DNA of 64,000 bases from Eubacteriales bacterium (GCA_045659905.1 JAZRCT010000054.1:40546-104545), one strand, 5' to 3'. Positions 28,729-43,426 are shown, counted from the stretch's first letter. Made by a program: numbers and translations. The notes: generated by a model from the letters alone, not told the origin.

Positions 28729-28750
28729 TTAGATAAGCAGGATAGAAACA

Positions 28751-28812
28751 GGGGTGCTTTGCAGCCAAAGCACCCCTCGACACCCCGAAAGCATTTTTGG
28801 AGGTGTTTTTTT
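28751..28812 (+). terminator. two-hairpin terminator module, copy A
   Basis: GGGGTGCTTTG-CAGC-CAAAGCACCCC (28751-28776), then ACACCCC-GAAAGCATTTTT-GGAGGTGT plus T7 (28780-28812). It lies 23 nt after the lysS stop. Confidence 0.75.
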
Positions 28813-28951
28813 ATTGCCTTACGGCAATATCACTCTTCACGCAAGTGAAGAATATAACTCCTCACGTAAGTGAGGAATATCACTGTCGCCTGAGCGACAA
28901 TATCACTCCTTGCGAAGCACTCCCCAAGGTGAATATATAAGCCTTATATTC
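28813..28951 (+). repeat. mini-hairpin micro-array A (conserved word AATATCACT)
   Basis: Hairpins are ATTGCC-TTAC-GGCAAT, CTTCAC-GCAA-GTGAAG, CCTCAC-GTAA-GTGAGG, GTCGC-CTGA-GCGAC, CCTTG...CAAGG and GAATATA-N7-TATATTC. The first five alternate with AATATCACT at 28826, 28876 and 28899 and the variant AATATAACT at 28851. Confidence 0.75.
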
Positions 28952-29800: not shown

Positions 29801-30087
29801 TAGCAAACCCCAAGGGATTTCATAAAATGCTATCAGCGAGTATTTCGCTAAGGCTTTTTTCGGAGTATTTTATGAAAATTATTATCTTACGTGCGCCCCG
29901 TGCGTTGCGTCCTATACTTAAAAAGCTGTTTTCCATAAGCTGACAGCGAGGCGTAATAATTAAAATCAAGAAAGAGAGAGTAAATCGGTACAGAAATATG
30001 CCGAAATGCTCCCTCTTTTTCCTTATCATTTGCCTAGCCTTATAAGGAACACTTTGATTTTAAAGCGTTCGAACGTATTTTTAAAAA

Positions 30088-30146
30088 GGGACGCTTTGAA
30101 GCCAAAGCGTCCCTTACACCCCGAAAGCATTTTGGGGTGTTTTTTA
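30088..30146 (+). terminator. two-hairpin terminator module, copy B
   Basis: GGGACGCTTTG-AAGC-CAAAGCGTCCC (30088-30113), then ACACCCC-GAAAGCATTTT-GGGGTGT plus T-run (30116-30146). It is nearly identical to copy A apart from compensatory changes in stem 1. Confidence 0.75.
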
Positions 30147-30268
30147 TTGCCTTGGGGCAATATCACTCTTTGCGAAAGCAAAGAATATCACTGCGAAGCA
30201 ATATCACCCTCGCCGCAGCGAGGATATTTCACTCTTCACTCTTCACTTTTCACTCTTCACTCTTACCT
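30146..30268 (+). repeat. mini-hairpin micro-array B plus YTTCACT heptamer tandem repeat
   Basis: Hairpins are ATTGCC-TTGG-GGCAAT, CTTTGC-GAAA-GCAAAG, GC-GAA-GC and CCTCGC-CGCA-GCGAGG. They are separated by AATATCACT/AATATCACC at 30159, 30184 and 30200. Tandem TTTCACT CTTCACT CTTCACT TTTCACT CTTCACT follows at 30227-30261. Confidence 0.75.
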
Positions 30269-36015: not shown

Positions 36016-39000
36016 ATGAGAAAACATCTTAAGACACTACTTCCGATAGTACTCGTAGTAGCGCTTGCTATGGCGCTCTCTATCGCAGTATTTGCCAGCG
36101 ACTCGACGAACGAAGCGAAAATAGGCGATACCGAGTACGCAACGCTTGAAGAAGCAGTAGCGGCTTCAAACGCATCGGCAAACGGCGAAACAATCGTCCT
36201 TTTAAAGGATATCAGCAGAACCGTTGCCACGATGGGCTTCTCCAAAAGCACCACCATAAATCTTAACGGTCACACGGTGTCCGCTACCGATCCCGCCAGC
36301 ACGGGAACCCCCATAATGGTAGTTAGTGCTCCGAACGTTACCTTAACGCTTTCGGGCAATGGCACCTTCAACGTAGCCCAGAAATTTCTTCAGATAAGCT
36401 CGAAGAATGACGGCGCTAAGATAATCGTAGACGGCACCGACTCCGGAATCGTAATCAACCAGTCTGCACCTCAGGCGGTATTAATGATAAACTCCGGCAC
36501 AGGCACAGAATTCACCAACGCCCACGTCTATGCGACTGCCAACGCCGAGTTCTTCCCCATTGCAAGCGGCACGGTAACCTTCAACGACTCCACGCTGGTC
36601 GCATCGAACTTAAGCGCTCGCCTCTTCAGCTACAAGACGGCAGGCGTAAAGTTCGTCTTTAATAACACCTACGCTTACGCCGGAAAGCAAATATTTGTCG
36701 GCAACGTTTTCAGCGCAACCGACGACAATTTCAAGGTAGATAACCCCGCCGACTTCGTAATGCTTGATGCAAAAAATTCCTTCTTCCACGCCACCGCCGT
36801 TGCCAGCGCCTCGAACATAACTAGCTTCGGCGGCGCAGGCAAGGTAAGAGTGTCGGGCACGATGAATTTCGACAACTGCGAGCTTATGGCATACAGAATA
36901 TTCGAAAACGGCGCCAGCTCGGGCGTTACCGGTCTTCAAGGCGGAGAGCTTGAGGACGGCTACACTCTTAATATCAACTGCACGAATTCCACCCTTCAGG
37001 CGCTTACTCACACCAACTCAGGACAGATAGTCCGCGGTCACGTAAATTACAGATTTGAGGACTGTAATCTCGGACTTCTCTCAAACGGCGGTCTCGGAGG
37101 TTATACCAGCGGCGAGTATATCACGGTAATCAACTGTCATTTCAGCAAAAACGTTATGGACGACACCACCGTAAAAGGCTGGCTTGAGGTAAATTCCATA
37201 AAGGAGGGTGACGGTAACGTATTCTGCTATGACGTAACCAATCCCGAATACCCCTTCTATCTCTGCAACGAAGAAAAGAAGCCCGTACAGCCCGATAATG
37301 TTCTTTTTAACAATTTTAACTTTAACCTGAACGCCAATGGTGCGCCCACATTCCCGCTTAAGGGCACAAGCACTACCGACGCCGGATTTAATAATACAAC
37401 CTACGGCGGTAACTTTACGATAAAGCACGGTATGCTTGAAGCAATTTCCGGAATCAACGGCTCATACCTTAAGTACACACCGTTACCGCACTTGACGGTT
37501 CTATACCCAGCACCCCCACCACGATAAACTCCACCGAGGACCCCTTCCTCATTCTCGGTGACGACAGCAAGCCAAATATCATCGCCTACAAGGACAACGA
37601 GATAATCGTAATCGATTTCGATATTATGCTTGAAAATTTCGGCGGCTCGAAGTTCTCAATAGCGCCGCAGTCGAGGGATGAGGATGGCAACGGAGTAAAC
37701 AGCGACCACTTTAACGTAACTGCGGGCGTAATCGACGGCAAGCCCTGTGCGGATTCACAGTGGCACCACATCCAGATGGTAATTTCCGTAAATCAAACGC
37801 AAAACGGCGACTGCAATATATACAACGGCTCGACCTACCAGCTTTACGTTGACGGCACTGCAGTCGGCAACGCTAACAGATTGGCGGTTAAAAACGACCT
37901 AACCCTGACCAAGGAGCTTTACCTCCAGGGTGTAAGAATCAACATTCTTAAAAATGTAGATCACACGACAGGCGCCTCTATCTCCTATGATAATATCCTT
38001 ATTCACTCCTACAAGGATGCCGATAGCTTCACTCCCGGCGCTCGTCCTCAGAACGGAACCCTTATGTCGGCGGGCAACAGACTTCATGGCATTGCGGCTG
38101 AAGGTCAGAGTCTCAATATCGTTACCGACCGCACGGTCACCACTAGCGATTTAGTCACCTCTCTTAAGAGCGGTATTTTCGATGAAAATGCAATTTACAC
38201 CGACTTTAAGGGCTTTATAACCGATAAATCGGCTCTCCCCGCAGGCAATAAGATTGGCGAGCAGATTTTCGTGCACGGCATAGACGGCACCACCGCTTCC
38301 TTCTACGCTACCTACTCGGATAAAACCTCGGGCGTCGTAGCTTACGGTACCGACGGTAAGCCTTATATGGGCGCAGACAACACGGCTGAGTTCAAAACTC
38401 TTTTCGAAACTTTAGGAAACGGCGAAACCGCTAAGCTTCTCGCCGAGGAATTTATCCTTGACGACAACAATCAGGTTTACCTTCACTCCGCCACCGCAAA
38501 GACCGTCAACTTCGACCTTGCGGGCAATACCTTGAACAAAATCAGAAAGGGCCTGATTTTCTCTAACTTCCAAAATATTACCTTCAACGTATACTCCTCG
38601 CTCCCCGGCGGCAAAATCAACTCACGAGGAATATTTGACAACAGCATCAACCCCAGCGATGCATACTACAGCTTTAATACCAACTTCGGTGGTGCAATGT
38701 TCTTCGTAAGCCAGCCTAACGCTACTATAAATCTCGGTAAATACGGAGGCTATTCCGGTGAAAACCTTACCGTCACCGGTGCGTTCATGGTTGACATTTC
38801 AGCTAACGTACAAAACACAAGCCTTAATATCGACGGCGGTACTTATATAAGAACCGTACACGACTCAATAGGCTTTATCGGTGTAAGAGCAGGCACTAAC
38901 TCTGCTATTTCCATCAAGAATGCAAACCTCCTTTCAGGAGAAGCAAGCCCTGCGACTATCTTCAGCATTCTCGAAGGCTCTACGGCAACCCTTACGGTAG

Positions 39001-40730
39001 AGAAATCCACCGTATTTATGCCGATGCCTACGGGCGATAACGCAACCGCCAGTGCGCTCTTTGATTCTCTTAGCACAACCGCCACCGTAACCTTCAACAG
39101 CACCAGCTTCTCCAACGTATCCTTCACTCCCAACAAGGCAGGCTATTCCAAGGTAAAGCTCGGTACGGGCTGTACCTACAGCGAAAGCTGTAATACCGCT
39201 AACGTTGATTTCGGTGAAAATGCGGCGGTAACTCTGGCGGCGGGCTGGAAGCAGACTCTCGCAAACGGCTCTGAGCAGCTTATATTCAACAGCGTAGAGG
39301 GACAGGGCTCAATGACCTACCACTACTATAAGAACTCCACCGCTAACAACGGAAAATACTTATTCGTATGGACCGGCGAGACCGGTACTGACGGAAGCGG
39401 CAACACCGTTCCTTCGGGAAGCTTCACTGCGATATACGGCGATATCTCTACCGTATGTGACGGCGACGCTACCAATGGCTACACCTTAAAAAGCGACTGC
39501 TACTACGGCTCGAAAAACGGTATCGTAAGTGAAAATGTAAACGAAACCTACCTTGTATCCACCGGCGTTACAGCTCCCGATGACAAGCTCACTTACGTAA
39601 TGCCCAATCAGACGTATATCGTGCTTGCCGAGGGACAGCGCATCGTCACTTGGGAAATCGGCGAAAGCTCCGCCACCGAGGTGCGTGATGCCGACGACGA
39701 TACTGCGCCTTCGGGCTTTGAGCTTCCCGTATCCAAGGCAGAAGTTTACGAATACACCTGGAACGTAGAAAGCGTAACCGAGGGTGGCGTACAGTACGAA
39801 ACCCGTACCGTAAAATTTGAAGTACTCTTTAAGCTCAAATCCAACATATCGCTTAACAACGATTTCAAGTACAATATCTATATCCCCAAGGCTCTCGTTG
39901 AGGGCGGTGACGTTAACGAAACTATACTCCTTAACGGTAACGAGGTTACCCTTACCGACCTCTATATTCACGAAAGCGTTGAATATTATATCGTTTCGGT
40001 AAACAACATCGCAGCTCCAAACGGCGGAGATTCATTCGAGGTAATCACTACCTTAAATCTTGCCGACGATGCTATGGAGGCTACCGACACTATCGATACT
40101 ACCTTCACGCTCTCGATTCCCGAGTATGCAAAGCTTGTGCTTGAAGATACGTCTCTCAACGCAGAGTGCAAGCAGATGATGGCAGACGTGCTCAACTACA
40201 TAAGACTTGCGGCAGTCTTCGGCGGTGACGCTTATACCGCTAAGGCAGGATACACCGCAGTCAACGATGCAATTGCTCTTTACGACGCTGCAGGAATCAC
40301 TGCTACCGATACCACTGCGACCGACTTTGCAGCTCTTGCTAAGACTCCCGTAGGAGTAAAGGCGGCAGTAGATGCGGCAACCTTTGAAATCGGCTCAAGC
40401 GTAAAGATGCGCCTTTACCTCTCCGAGGGCTATAACGGAACGCTTACCCTCACCTACAAGGACAAGGCAAACGCCGACGTAGTCACCGATTACGAGATTA
40501 CCGACGGTAAGTGTAACGGCAAGAGCTACGTAGAGCTTAATCTTAAGGCATACTATATTGCAAATGACGTCACCATCACCTTTGACGGTCAGGCAGACGC
40601 TACGAATGCGGTATATAACCTCGCTTCTTATATTGAGTATTACAAGAGCAACGCAAAGGTATCTGACCTCGCAAAGGCGCTCTACGCTTACTCGCTCTCT
40701 GCACTCGCATATCAGAATACCTTAGGATAA
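36016..40730 (+). pseudogene. giant secreted beta-helix / LamG-domain surface protein, split by a frameshift (503-aa plus 1034-aa ORFs)
   Basis: AAGGAG RBS and a signal peptide MRKHLKTLLPIVLVVALAMALSIAVFA. The ORF stops at 37527. The second frame is open from 37473 and continues the same domain (...VTALDGSIPSTPTTINSTEDPFLILGDD...). A LamG-like signature is present (SQWHHIQMVISV...YQLYVDGTAVG). Beta-helix-type repeats and the C-terminal domain are shared with the 30433 gene. Confidence 0.7.
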
Positions 40731-40743
40731 GGAGATTTCCGAA

Positions 40744-40890
40744 ATGAAGCAATATATTGCTCCAAAAATTGAGCTTTTAGCTCTGATAAGCAGAGATATT
40801 ATTACGGACTCTCAGCCCTCCGGCGGCGAGACCGATACGCCTATTCTCAGCATAGGCCCTAATCAAAATCAAAGTAACGGAAATTTCTGA
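40744..40890 (+). CDS. 48-aa peptide, paralog of the 30283-30414 peptide (not in ORF track)
   Basis: ATG 13 nt after the stop of the giant gene, with a TAAGGAG RBS overlapping that stop. Translation: MKQYIAPKIELLALISRDIITDSQPSGGETDTPILSIGPNQNQSNGNF. Confidence 0.6.
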   Translation: MKQYIAPKIELLALISRDIITDSQPSGGETDTPILSIGPNQNQSNGNF

Positions 40891-40894
40891 TATA

Positions 40895-40953
40895 AAAGCA
40901 CTTATGATGAACGATAAAATCGTCTGTCATAAGTGCTTTTGCGTTTCTTTTGC
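40895..40953 (+). terminator. intrinsic terminator after the peptide gene
   Basis: A 13-bp stem AAAGCACTTATGA / TCATAAGTGCTTT followed by TGCGTTTCTTTT. Confidence 0.75.
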
Positions 40954-40975
40954 CTTGCTTCCCGATGGTAATCAG

Positions 40976-41139
40976 GTGAAGTTTTCGCTTATGCGAAAGT
41001 GAAGTTGCTACGCAGTGAAGTTTGTGCTACGCACAAGTGAAGTTATGTTTGCCCTCTTTGCCGAAGGCAAAACTTCACTATCCGCAGGATAACTTCACTT
41101 ACGTAGTAAACTTCACTTGCCCGCAAGGGCAAACTTAGT
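40976..41139 (+). repeat. mini-hairpin micro-array C (GTGAAGTT x4, then AACTTCAC(T) x4)
   Basis: GTGAAGTT occurs at 40976, 40999, 41015 and 41037. AACTTCACT occurs at 41071, 41091 and 41109, with a degenerate AACTTAGT at 41132. The words are separated by mini-hairpins: TTTCGC-TTAT-GCGAAA, TGC-TAC-GCA, TGTGC-TAC-GCACA, TTTGCC-GAA-GGCAAA, ATCC-GCA-GGAT, TACGTA and TGCCC-GCAA-GGGCA. Confidence 0.75.
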
Positions 41140-41143
41140 TAAT

Positions 41144-41187
41144 GGGCGCACTCGAAAACTGCGTTTTCGGGCACGCCCGTTTTTCTT
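41144..41187 (+). terminator. terminator-like nested hairpin closing array C
   Basis: GGGCG...CGCCC encloses CGAAAAC-TGC-GTTTTCG and is followed by GTTTTTCTT. Confidence 0.55.
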
Positions 41188-41211
41188 CCTCACTCTTTTT
41201 TTAGACTAAAA

Positions 41212-41436
41212 TCAGTAATCGGTAGGGTAGGAATCCTCGTCGCAATCACAGCACGGAGAGCAGATTTCTTCCTTTTTCTTCATATTCTTCATTTTATTTA
41301 TCATACAGGACATTTTATCGGTTATGCCTCGCTTCAGCGAGGATACTATACTGTAAGCTCCGTATACGGCAAGACCTCCTGCCATAGCAATTATAAGCGG
41401 ATGCTTCTTCTTTTTTGCATTTTTCATAAAAAGCAT
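41212..41436 (-). CDS. small membrane protein with a Cys-rich acidic tail
   Basis: 74 aa with a K-rich N-terminus, one TM helix (LIIAMAGGLAVYGAYSIV) and the C-terminus EEICSPCCDCDEDSYPTDY. RBS AGGGA. I recognised no family. Confidence 0.5.
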   Translation of the reverse strand: MLFMKNAKKKKHPLIIAMAGGLAVYGAYSIVSSLKRGITDKMSCMINKMKNMKKKEEICSPCCDCDEDSYPTDY

Positions 41437-43363: not shown

Positions 43364-43380
43364 CATTTTCATATATCAAG

Positions 43381-43412
43381 AAAAAGTCATCGGAAATTTC
43401 CGATGACTTTTT
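43381..43412. terminator. bidirectional intrinsic terminator
   Basis: Perfect palindrome AAAAAGTCATCGGAAA / TTTCCGATGACTTTTT. Confidence 0.8.
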
Positions 43413-43426
43413 CTTTGCGTTTTTCG

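Follow-up and report, generated by a model that had tools for sequence, protein, structure and literature searches.

A mirrored heptamer-hairpin array in a Eubacteriales genome as a probable ORF-less member of a foldback repeat family dispersed in gut Clostridia

Introduction

The Gut-1 motif (Rfam RF01706) was described from 43 examples in human-gut metagenomes, classed as a probable non-coding RNA and reported as found solely in human-gut environmental sequences, with no sequenced organism (Weinberg et al. 2010, PMC2864571). It has been an orphan motif since 2010. Here we analyze array C, a mirrored array of 7-nucleotide (nt) words and mini-hairpins at about positions 40976-41139 of a 64,000-nt stretch of DNA from a Eubacteriales bacterium (GCA_045659905.1 JAZRCT010000054.1:40546-104545; hereafter the window). 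One arm of the array matches Gut-1, and we put at roughly 0.6 the probability that array C, whose canonical strand is minus, is a foldback repeat of the kind dispersed in gut Clostridia, present here as a full copy without a gene, likely solitary and passive.

The gene that recurs beside this repeat in other genomes encodes a PF05635 protein, of the S23p or 'four helix bundle protein' family, which has Avd as a homologue; to our knowledge, this family is without known function outside diversity-generating retroelements. The Coxiella intervening sequence (IVS) of ribosomal RNA (rRNA) holds an S23p open reading frame (ORF) inside the stem that its terminal inverted repeats form and counts as a selfish element, and IVS stems are proven RNase III substrates (PMC4990558). 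Hairpins of the d(GCGNAGC) type have extraordinary stability as DNA and far less as RNA (Hirao review, PMC13037366); the tetraloop RNA r(GCGAAAGC) melts at 39 C, and DNA mini-hairpins bind single-strand-binding protein (SSB) poorly and are found at priming sites, primase/ssi (PMC13037366).

Results

The whole 64 kb holds only seven exact copies of the word GTGAAGTT, four on the plus strand (40976, 40999, 41015 and 41037) and three on the minus strand (41071, 41091 and 41109), all inside 141 nt; shuffled sequences held 1.49 ± 1.28 copies, and none of 100 shuffles reached seven. With a degenerate eighth word, AACTTAGT, at 41132-41139, the words span 164 nt, and the mirrored order of four forward and four reversed words that an earlier note on this DNA had described is real and non-random. 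The same note gave every interval its own mini-hairpin, and all spacers are indeed perfect mini-hairpins, each different, with stems of 2-6 bp and loops of 3-4 nt: on the plus strand TTCGC-TTAT-GCGAA, GC-TAC-GC and TGTGC-TAC-GCACA (spacers 1-3), then TGCC-GAA-GGCA, ATCC-GCA-GGAT, TTAC-GTA-GTAA and TTGCCC-GCAA-GGGCAA (spacers 4-7). The array is intergenic, between protein-coding genes, and its parts are as follows:

40894-40953, left bracket: 22-nt imperfect inverted repeat (40894-40915 / 40919-40940, 86% complementary), then TTTTGCGTTTCTTTT
40976-41044, canonical minus strand, arm 2 ('A-half'): ACTTCAC x4, that is GTGAAGTT x4 on the plus strand, with three different mini-hairpins between
41045-41070, minus strand, centre: last hairpin of the S-half (TTGCC-TTC-GGCAA), then AGAGGGCAAACAT
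41067-41141, minus strand, arm 1 ('S-half'): match to Rfam Gut-1 (RF01706)
41144-41187, plus strand, right bracket: GC-rich hairpin, then GTTTTTCTT; terminator-like

Read on the minus strand, arm 1 opens with the degenerate word as ACTAAGTT (41139-41132), continues with three copies of GTGAAGTT and carries the hairpins TTGCCC-TTGC-GGGCAA, TTAC-TAC-GTAA and TATCC-TGC-GGATA. Since GTGAAGT-type elements have ACTAAGTT with a TGCCC..GGGCAA hairpin as their conserved first unit, minus is the canonical reading strand of array C, and the outer word, earlier described as a degenerate copy, is not a sign of decay. In the centre, GGGCAAAC has the sequence of the 3′ arm of hairpin 1 and complements the element head GTTTGCCC. 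The minus-strand hairpins of arm 2 are TTGTGC-GTA-GCACAA, TGC-GTA-GCA and TTTCGC-ATAA-GCGAAA, and its unit GTGAAGTTGCTACGCAGTGAAGTT fits the search pattern that fetched the metagenome loci described below.

The left bracket is the terminator of a 48-amino-acid (aa) ORF (40744-40890, plus), and the minus strand also reads there as a hairpin and U-run; the right bracket sits between array C and the 3′ end of a 74-aa ORF (41212-41436, minus). Bracketing by a terminator and a second terminator-like hairpin, as proposed before, was thus confirmed, both with a T-run. T-runs at array C belong to these two bracketing hairpins only: the internal hairpins are followed by the 7-nt word, with no T-run, and do not qualify as intrinsic terminators. 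No promoter-like site was found within 40890-41210, which counts against a stand-alone RNA gene of about 200 nt.

The Rfam covariance model RF01706 matched 41067-41141 (minus) with 53.5 bits and E 6e-10, above the gathering threshold of 50, and the model alignment placed in the right half of array C three consecutive variable hairpins on GUGAAAU-like linkers, as in the Gut-1 definition. The left arm (40976-41044) had no match to the model even at E<=10; its word-hairpin grammar is the same nonetheless. Two further arrays in the window scored below the threshold:

28822-28908, minus strand, array A: half-element, GTGATAT/GTTATAT x4 with 5-7-bp hairpins, without an antisense arm
30155-30264, minus strand, array B: half-element, GTGATAT x3 plus GTGAAAT, including a d(GCGAAGC) mini-hairpin

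The scores were 42.6 bits for array A (E 5e-5, minus strand) and 43.6 bits for array B (30155-30232, minus, E 3e-5). Array B is preceded on the minus strand by five hairpin-less heptamers, GTGAAGA/GTGAAAA (30228-30264), which on the plus strand read (TTCACTC)n. All three arrays in the 64 kb are intergenic and behind genes, with two word types between them (GTGATAT in A and B, GTGAAGT in C). Six family loci also scored above the Rfam threshold, GTGAAGT- and TCGATAT-type arms mostly below it, and the flanks in Weinberg's seed alignment already contain sense-then-antisense words (BAAZ01000095, BAAZ01025322). The catalogued Gut-1 motif corresponds to a single arm of a foldback element that has two, and arrays A and B belong to the family of array C as half-elements.

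Array A adjoins a two-hairpin terminator module (28750-28818) and array B a paralogous one (30086-30148). The first stems of the two modules differ by compensatory changes (AGGGGTGC/GCACCCCT vs AAGGGACGC/GCGTCCCTT), the second is a ACACCCCGAAAG..GGGGTGT terminator with a T-run, and the terminator head recurs at the orthologous site of array C in loci L122 and L124. In a genome-collection scan, the module (ACACCCCGAARG..GGGGTGTTTT) turned out to be a generic terminator of many phyla, with 0 arrays in 112 loci. The lysS gene of locus L157, at 69% nt identity, places the window approximately with an Oscillospiraceae-like Clostridia metagenome-assembled genome. Bare word runs also adjoin arrays in L031 (TCGTATCT-type), in L124 (GAATGCA x5) and in one Gut-1 seed sequence (AUUUUCA x4), and bare heptamer runs resemble the hairpin-less state around PF05635 genes of other taxa.

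An orientation-blind metagenome scan with a single unit, GTGAWRTT-GCNNNGC-A-GTGAWRTT, returned at least 120 loci, 93 of them unique among the matches listed. Orthologous copies inflate raw counts, and family-level or distinct-protein counts were used where it matters. Sense words followed by antisense words, most commonly 4+4, made up 59 of the 93; the reverse order only was seen in 3, one arm only in 24, and 7 were cut by contig ends. Among these matches the word type (GTGATAT, GTGAAGT, GTGAAAT or GTGATGT) was always common to both arms, and a TCGATAT type was found in L122 and L031. The family has a polarity: the element opens with a degenerate first word (ACTAAGTT or GTTATAT), stems are 3-5 bp long in the first arm and 6-7 bp in the second, and the centre joins a repeat of the 3′ arm of hairpin 1 to the complement of the first word. 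Head-centre complementarity of at least 10 nt was present in 23 of 50 arrays compared with 11% of controls, with several covarying variants. On its minus strand array C matches the GTGAAGT-type template unit by unit. The mirror layout, which had been thought to set array C apart from A and B as a distinct variant, is the family norm, and array C is the canonical full-length form.

In L442 and L444 (~1250-1500), a GC-rich element behind a tRNA gene has sense GTGAAGC and antisense CCTTCAC words, and its arms differ at the last word position, with GTGAAG/CTTCAC as the only common core. Degenerate and exact word-triplet scans of viral contigs returned nearly all ordinary tandem repeats, with true arrays only in L020 and L031, and a generic hairpin-array detector was too noisy for genome-wide counts.

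The sole neighbour family that recurs across unrelated loci is a PF05635 protein of about 120 aa (23S rRNA-intervening sequence protein; E 3e-29), whose closest solved structure is 2RLD, with five chains. Its gene was present at 20 of the 93 unique loci among the matches listed, 13-170 nt past the second arm, and encodes at least six distinct proteins; in L320 it lies between the arms, and in L334 it is flanked by two elements. We also sampled in reverse, by protein and not by array, taking four homologues from assemblies and 10 full loci from viral contigs. All four assembly homologues were preceded by a mirrored GTGAAGT array, with 10-25 nt between its end and the start codon, and all 10 viral-contig loci had inverted arrays of short words, either on both sides of the gene or on its upstream side. 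The upstream arrays were of the GTGAAAT, GTGAAGC/CCTTCAC and TTATTCA types; other viral-contig genes had terminal inverted repeats of tandem heptamers, for example (TAATTCG)n (33 nt, 100% complementary), and AGTTGAAA-type arms flanking a PF05635 gene were 39 nt long and 95% complementary. The top 6-mer in the PF05635 flanks reached 5-16 copies in 13 of 14 loci and 4 in L441, against a mean of 4.0 and a maximum of 7 in 106 control windows. Protein clades track word type, with L325 as the one exception. With the gene just downstream of both arms or between them, these loci have the topology of an rRNA IVS.

The literature we searched held no description of a link between PF05635 and repeat arrays, and a prior description elsewhere is possible. 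PADLOC gave no hit for PF05635 as a known defence component, and neither a reverse transcriptase nor a template/variable repeat pair was found beside the arrays. The family is large, with more than 8000 proteins at E<=1e-10 in one search. Most homologues from gut assemblies lie on very short contigs (0.5-2 kb), suggesting that assemblies break at the flanking arrays and that the elements are probably under-represented in metagenome-assembled genomes. In single cases a large serine recombinase (L434 1-1080) or a T5orf172/MUG113 nuclease-like gene (L431 1568-2242) stands beside a PF05635-plus-array module.

Family arrays begin at most a few nt away from the T-run of a terminator. Among the matches listed, a tRNA gene points into the array at 20 loci, and the upstream neighbour was co-directional with the array in 48 cases vs 18; other arrays follow a tmRNA gene or a 5S-tRNA cluster. 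The orthologous site of array C has no array in the closest relative (neighbouring gene 84% identical), a mirrored array of another word (TCGATATG x4, then ATATCGA x5) in a 62% relative, and unrelated hairpins plus GAATGCA x5 in another relative. Loss of the mirror arrangement in close relatives, which the earlier note had counted as evidence against its proposal, is therefore seen in the nearest relative and only in part in the farther ones. Elsewhere, strains differ by gain or loss of entire word-plus-hairpin units, first arms of identical sequence lead into differing second arms and right flanks, and one identical whole array is joined to a different left flank. The family is spread over many unrelated loci. 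The arrays are rearrangement breakpoints, strain-variable and dispensable, and they behave as a dispersed repeat, not as a conserved RNA gene; the recombination site offered as one early interpretation fits these strain comparisons.

In phage contig L031, arrays lie on both sides of a rolling-circle Rep gene. A role as origin or iterons of this Rep was rejected, as 10 Rep relatives (61-86% identity) are without arrays. A second widespread intergenic repeat (..GTCAGCTTCGCTGACAGCTCCCC.., ..ATTCTAAGCGCAGCGAAGAATCC..) adjoins the phage-contig arrays, at L031 5000-5150 and 6160-6460 and in the upstream region of L240.

Folding of 40960-41190 gave -97.3 kcal/mol (z -7.45) for the plus strand and -107.3 kcal/mol (z -11.26) for the minus strand, and 0 of 200 shuffles did as well. 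With RNA and with DNA parameters, the predicted fold is a nested word-paired stem with side hairpins, and the same fold is predicted for other family members. Such a test is nearly sure to pass for any inverted repeat, so we relied on comparative evidence instead. Nested word pairs were complementary at 6.395 of 7 positions, compared with 6.418 ± 0.019 when the order of the antisense words was permuted, and no register-specific compensation between the arms was found. Only 61 of 141 word pairs were perfect, GTGATAT was combined with ATATAAC in 14 of 43 layouts, a systematic mismatch, and the arms often have unequal numbers of words. As words are identical within an element while the hairpins all differ, the 7-nt words are clearly under selection; in-register complementarity is not the selected trait. 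The long branched stem first predicted for array C thus stands as a minimum-energy fold and falls as a target of selection for in-register word pairing. In hairpin-less relatives the arms are plain inverted repeats of up to 33 nt with 100% complementarity, which makes arm-to-arm pairing credible as a family property.

Hairpin statistics were taken from 205 unique units, whose hairpin sequences are all different. Their 1044 stem pairs comprise 989 Watson-Crick, 10 G-T, 14 A-C and 31 other pairs; 60% of the loops are triloops and 30% tetraloops; the closing pair is C-G in 86% and the outer pair T-A in 88%. On the antisense-word strand the loops are GAA, GCA, AAA, GTA, GAAA and GCAA, which is the signature of d(C-GNA-G)/GNRA mini-hairpins, and the heptamers GCGAAGC and GCGTAGC are found literally. 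An excess of G-U over A-C in the stems, looked for to spot the transcribed strand, was found on neither strand in the 205 units; together with the missing promoter-like site, this speaks against the stand-alone structured RNA that had been considered for array C. Folded with DNA parameters, each of the four strands of the single arms of array C formed the hairpin series expected of it (z -2.4 to -3.0); folded as RNA, the Gut-1-sense strands did no better than shuffles (z -0.2, -1.3).

Among the neighbours of array C, the 503-aa (36016-37527) and 1034-aa (37626-40730) ORFs form one ORF of 1569-1580 aa in L121, L122 and L124, and the gene at 36016-40730 is split in the window by a frameshift, as a pseudogene or because of an assembly error; it gave no match to a Pfam domain. 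Directly 3′ of this giant gene, the 48-aa ORF is conserved in the same three loci and would encode an unannotated small peptide with the consensus MK.Y.AP..EL......D(I/V)IT(D/G)S.P..GE.DTP(I/M)L...P(N/D)QNQ.N. The 74-aa and 48-aa neighbours and P0001 had no record in exact-protein look-ups. Farther on, a perfect 19+19-nt palindrome with no spacer (43378-43415), between convergent Sel1-repeat and trigger-factor-like genes, is probably a bidirectional terminator.

Discussion

We read array C as a full-length member of a two-armed foldback family that is dispersed in gut Clostridia and tightly linked to PF05635 genes. Arm one has three to four GTGAAGT words, and behind every one of them stands a perfect mini-hairpin of its own; a short centre repeats the 3′ arm of the first hairpin, and arm two has three to four ACTTCAC words with a hairpin each. 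The analysis shows architecture, membership in the family, context, variability and the link to the gene, and from these we infer protein binding, mobility and the active form, RNA or DNA. When the DNA, or a read-through transcript, becomes single-stranded, each spacer may snap into its mini-hairpin, and the identical words would then be exposed or pair with those of the other arm, giving a branched stem. Probably they serve as binding sites of a factor specific for the word type, with an Avd-like protein as the best candidate. The window copy, being without a PF05635 gene, is most likely passive, and its side effects would at most be those of a terminator back-up or a recombination hot spot.

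Several observations weigh against this reading. No transposase, integrase or target-site duplication was found, which leaves presence/absence patterns and mosaicism as the sole basis for mobility. The metagenome loci, mostly from the human gut, were picked via one unit (T-GC-NNN-GC-A), which makes the sample biased. The correlation between protein clade and word type, with its exception in L325, is confounded by host phylogeny. A hidden Markov model search of the 64-kb window found no PF05635 ORF, and relatives have one, which would make array C only an ORF-less derivative. One arm only occurs in about a quarter of the listed family loci and in arrays A and B, and foldback pairing is thus not essential for persistence. 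At several PF05635 loci the array fills the space between the stop codon of the upstream gene and the ribosome-binding site (RBS), with only the RBS before the start codon; the array must therefore be transcribed there and could be a genuine RNA leader and not a selfish DNA repeat.

This last point leads to the best surviving alternative, in which the whole region of about 170 nt is part of one RNA, a 3′ trailer or inter-cistronic leader, whose arms zip into a hairpin-studded stem that would be processed by RNase III, block exonucleases or back up termination. We consider it possible, at odds clearly below even. The nested word-paired stem is the minimum-energy fold of array C (z -7.5, -11.3) and of other members, the word type is always common to both arms among the matches listed, hairpin-less relatives have perfectly complementary plain arms, arrays at PF05635 loci abut stop codon and RBS and must hence be transcribed, and stems of this kind in the IVS are processed by RNase III (PMC4990558). 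Against it, array C lies between terminators without an internal promoter-like site, the stems have 10 G-U vs 14 A-C pairs among 1044, and pairing shows no register-specific compensation and the systematic GTGATAT/ATATAAC mismatch. Arm word numbers are unequal and one-armed elements exist, sense-word single arms fold like shuffles as RNA, 60% of loops are triloops, and short GC-NNN-GC stems are of a kind that is stable as DNA, while r(GCGAAAGC) melts at only 39 C (PMC13037366).

A further alternative is a host element that acts at the level of DNA. GNA/GNRA mini-hairpins, formed on transient single-stranded DNA or extruded by supercoiling downstream of heavily transcribed genes, might then be a BIME-2-like site for gyrase or topoisomerase, provide an SSB-free priming signal or stand in the way of replication or transcription. 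The stems are near-pure Watson-Crick, with a C-G closing pair in 86% and the d(C-GNA-G) loop signature, and DNA parameters give the hairpin series on all four arm strands; such hairpins are far stabler as DNA, bind SSB poorly and mark primase/ssi sites (PMC13037366). Position behind tRNA, tmRNA and 5S genes and the role of the arrays as rearrangement breakpoints are also in line with it. We nevertheless hold a host element to be unlikely, as none of the proposed activities is directly evidenced, the arrays are dispensable at orthologous sites, and a host function leaves the PF05635 linkage and the several word types per genome unexplained.

Two independent convergent Gut-1 small RNAs, one per strand, with three to four hairpins on GUGAAGU linkers and perhaps acting as a protein sponge, would agree with the covariance-model match of the right arm on the minus strand, with the shared word-hairpin grammar of both arms on opposite strands and with the classing of Gut-1 as a probable non-coding RNA (PMC2864571), yet they are very improbable, given the lack of promoter-like sites, arrays that begin right after an upstream terminator, non-equivalent arms (stems of 3-5 vs 6-7 bp, first word and centre of fixed polarity relative to the upstream gene), a left arm missed by the Rfam model even at E<=10, sense-word strands no stabler than shuffles as RNA and no G-U signal.

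Beyond the copy in the window, the foldback family may be part of something larger. We suggest tentatively, at odds below even, that Gut-1 arrays, the inverted heptamer arrays at PF05635 genes of many phyla and the S23p rRNA IVS form one foldback superfamily. In it, each subunit of a ring-forming Avd-like protein would bind a single word of single-stranded RNA or DNA, and the mini-hairpins would loop out of a TRAP-like wrap. Each clade would have its own word, protein and arrays together would make up a self-propagating or self-regulating module, and array C would be a dispersed target of it.

The linkage to PF05635 is the first handle on the nature of Gut-1, and hairpin-less versions of the same array design flank PF05635 genes in distant taxa. 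Three loose ends, Gut-1, S23p proteins and rRNA intervening sequences, are thereby connected, and 'function unknown' becomes a testable hypothesis of protein binding and RNase III processing. The arrays probably break metagenome assemblies, and annotating both arms as convergent 'Gut-1 sRNA genes' is likely to mislead.

Among known systems, CRISPR arrays have direct repeats of 23-50 nt, unique spacers of similar length, and cas genes or a leader; they were rejected for array C, which has repeats of 7-8 nt, palindromic 'spacers' of 7-19 nt and words in both orientations, with direct-repeat hits at chance level (21 bits vs a gathering score of 50). Integron attC sites were likewise set aside: by eye, GTGAAGT and GTGATAT are without the invariant GTT/AAC, only GTTATAT/ATATAAC fits, at 6 of 7 positions, and no integron integrase was seen in any array flank.

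Gut-1 itself (RF01706) shares with array C the variable-sequence hairpins, the GUGAAAU-like linkers and the human-gut metagenome source of the family, but Rfam models one arm of three hairpins as a stand-alone small RNA of unknown function, whereas the element described here is a two-armed mirror structure with a conserved first word and centre, located behind terminators and linked to PF05635. The d(GCGNAGC)/d(GCGNNAGC) DNA mini-hairpins (PMC13037366) recur in the spacers, in which loops of the C-GNA-G / C-GNRA-G kind prevail and the heptamers GCGTAGC and GCGAAGC are found literally; the natural examples known so far stand singly, at N4 promoters and at priming sites of phages or plasmids, not in word-joined arrays. 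The neighbour protein is a pentamer-type four-helix bundle homologous to Avd of diversity-generating retroelements (PF05635-like; PMC10053308), although the arrays, unlike those systems, have no adjoining reverse transcriptase or template/variable repeat pair.

The repetitive extragenic palindromes (REPs) of Proteobacteria, with their BIME and REPIN arrangements, are alike in being extragenic, behind terminators, built of opposed palindromic units in variable number, and mosaic and variable between strains; a family gene with its own repeats on both sides recalls the logic of a REPtron. REPs have a conserved hairpin sequence with a GTAG tetranucleotide and a RAYT HUH transposase as partner gene, whereas in the present family conservation lies in the linkers, each hairpin has a sequence of its own, and a non-enzymatic four-helix bundle takes the place of the partner. 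Membership in REP/BIME was therefore rejected: dispersed opposed palindromes are present, and a conserved GTAG palindrome and a RAYT are not (205 unique units); the one HUH Rep beside arrays is not generally linked to them.

A further likeness is to the rRNA IVS with an S23p ORF of Coxiella and Leptospira. Unlike the IVS, the arrays lie outside rRNA, their arms consist of tandem 7-nt words, interleaved in array C with mini-hairpins, most clostridial copies have both arms upstream of the gene, and many, including array C, are ORF-less; array C itself has the complementary arms, with no adjacent PF05635 gene and no insertion in an rRNA helix. Both systems have in common the same protein family, complementary arms able to form a long stem, an ORF between the arms in some copies (L320, L446-L449), a sporadic distribution and a selfish character.

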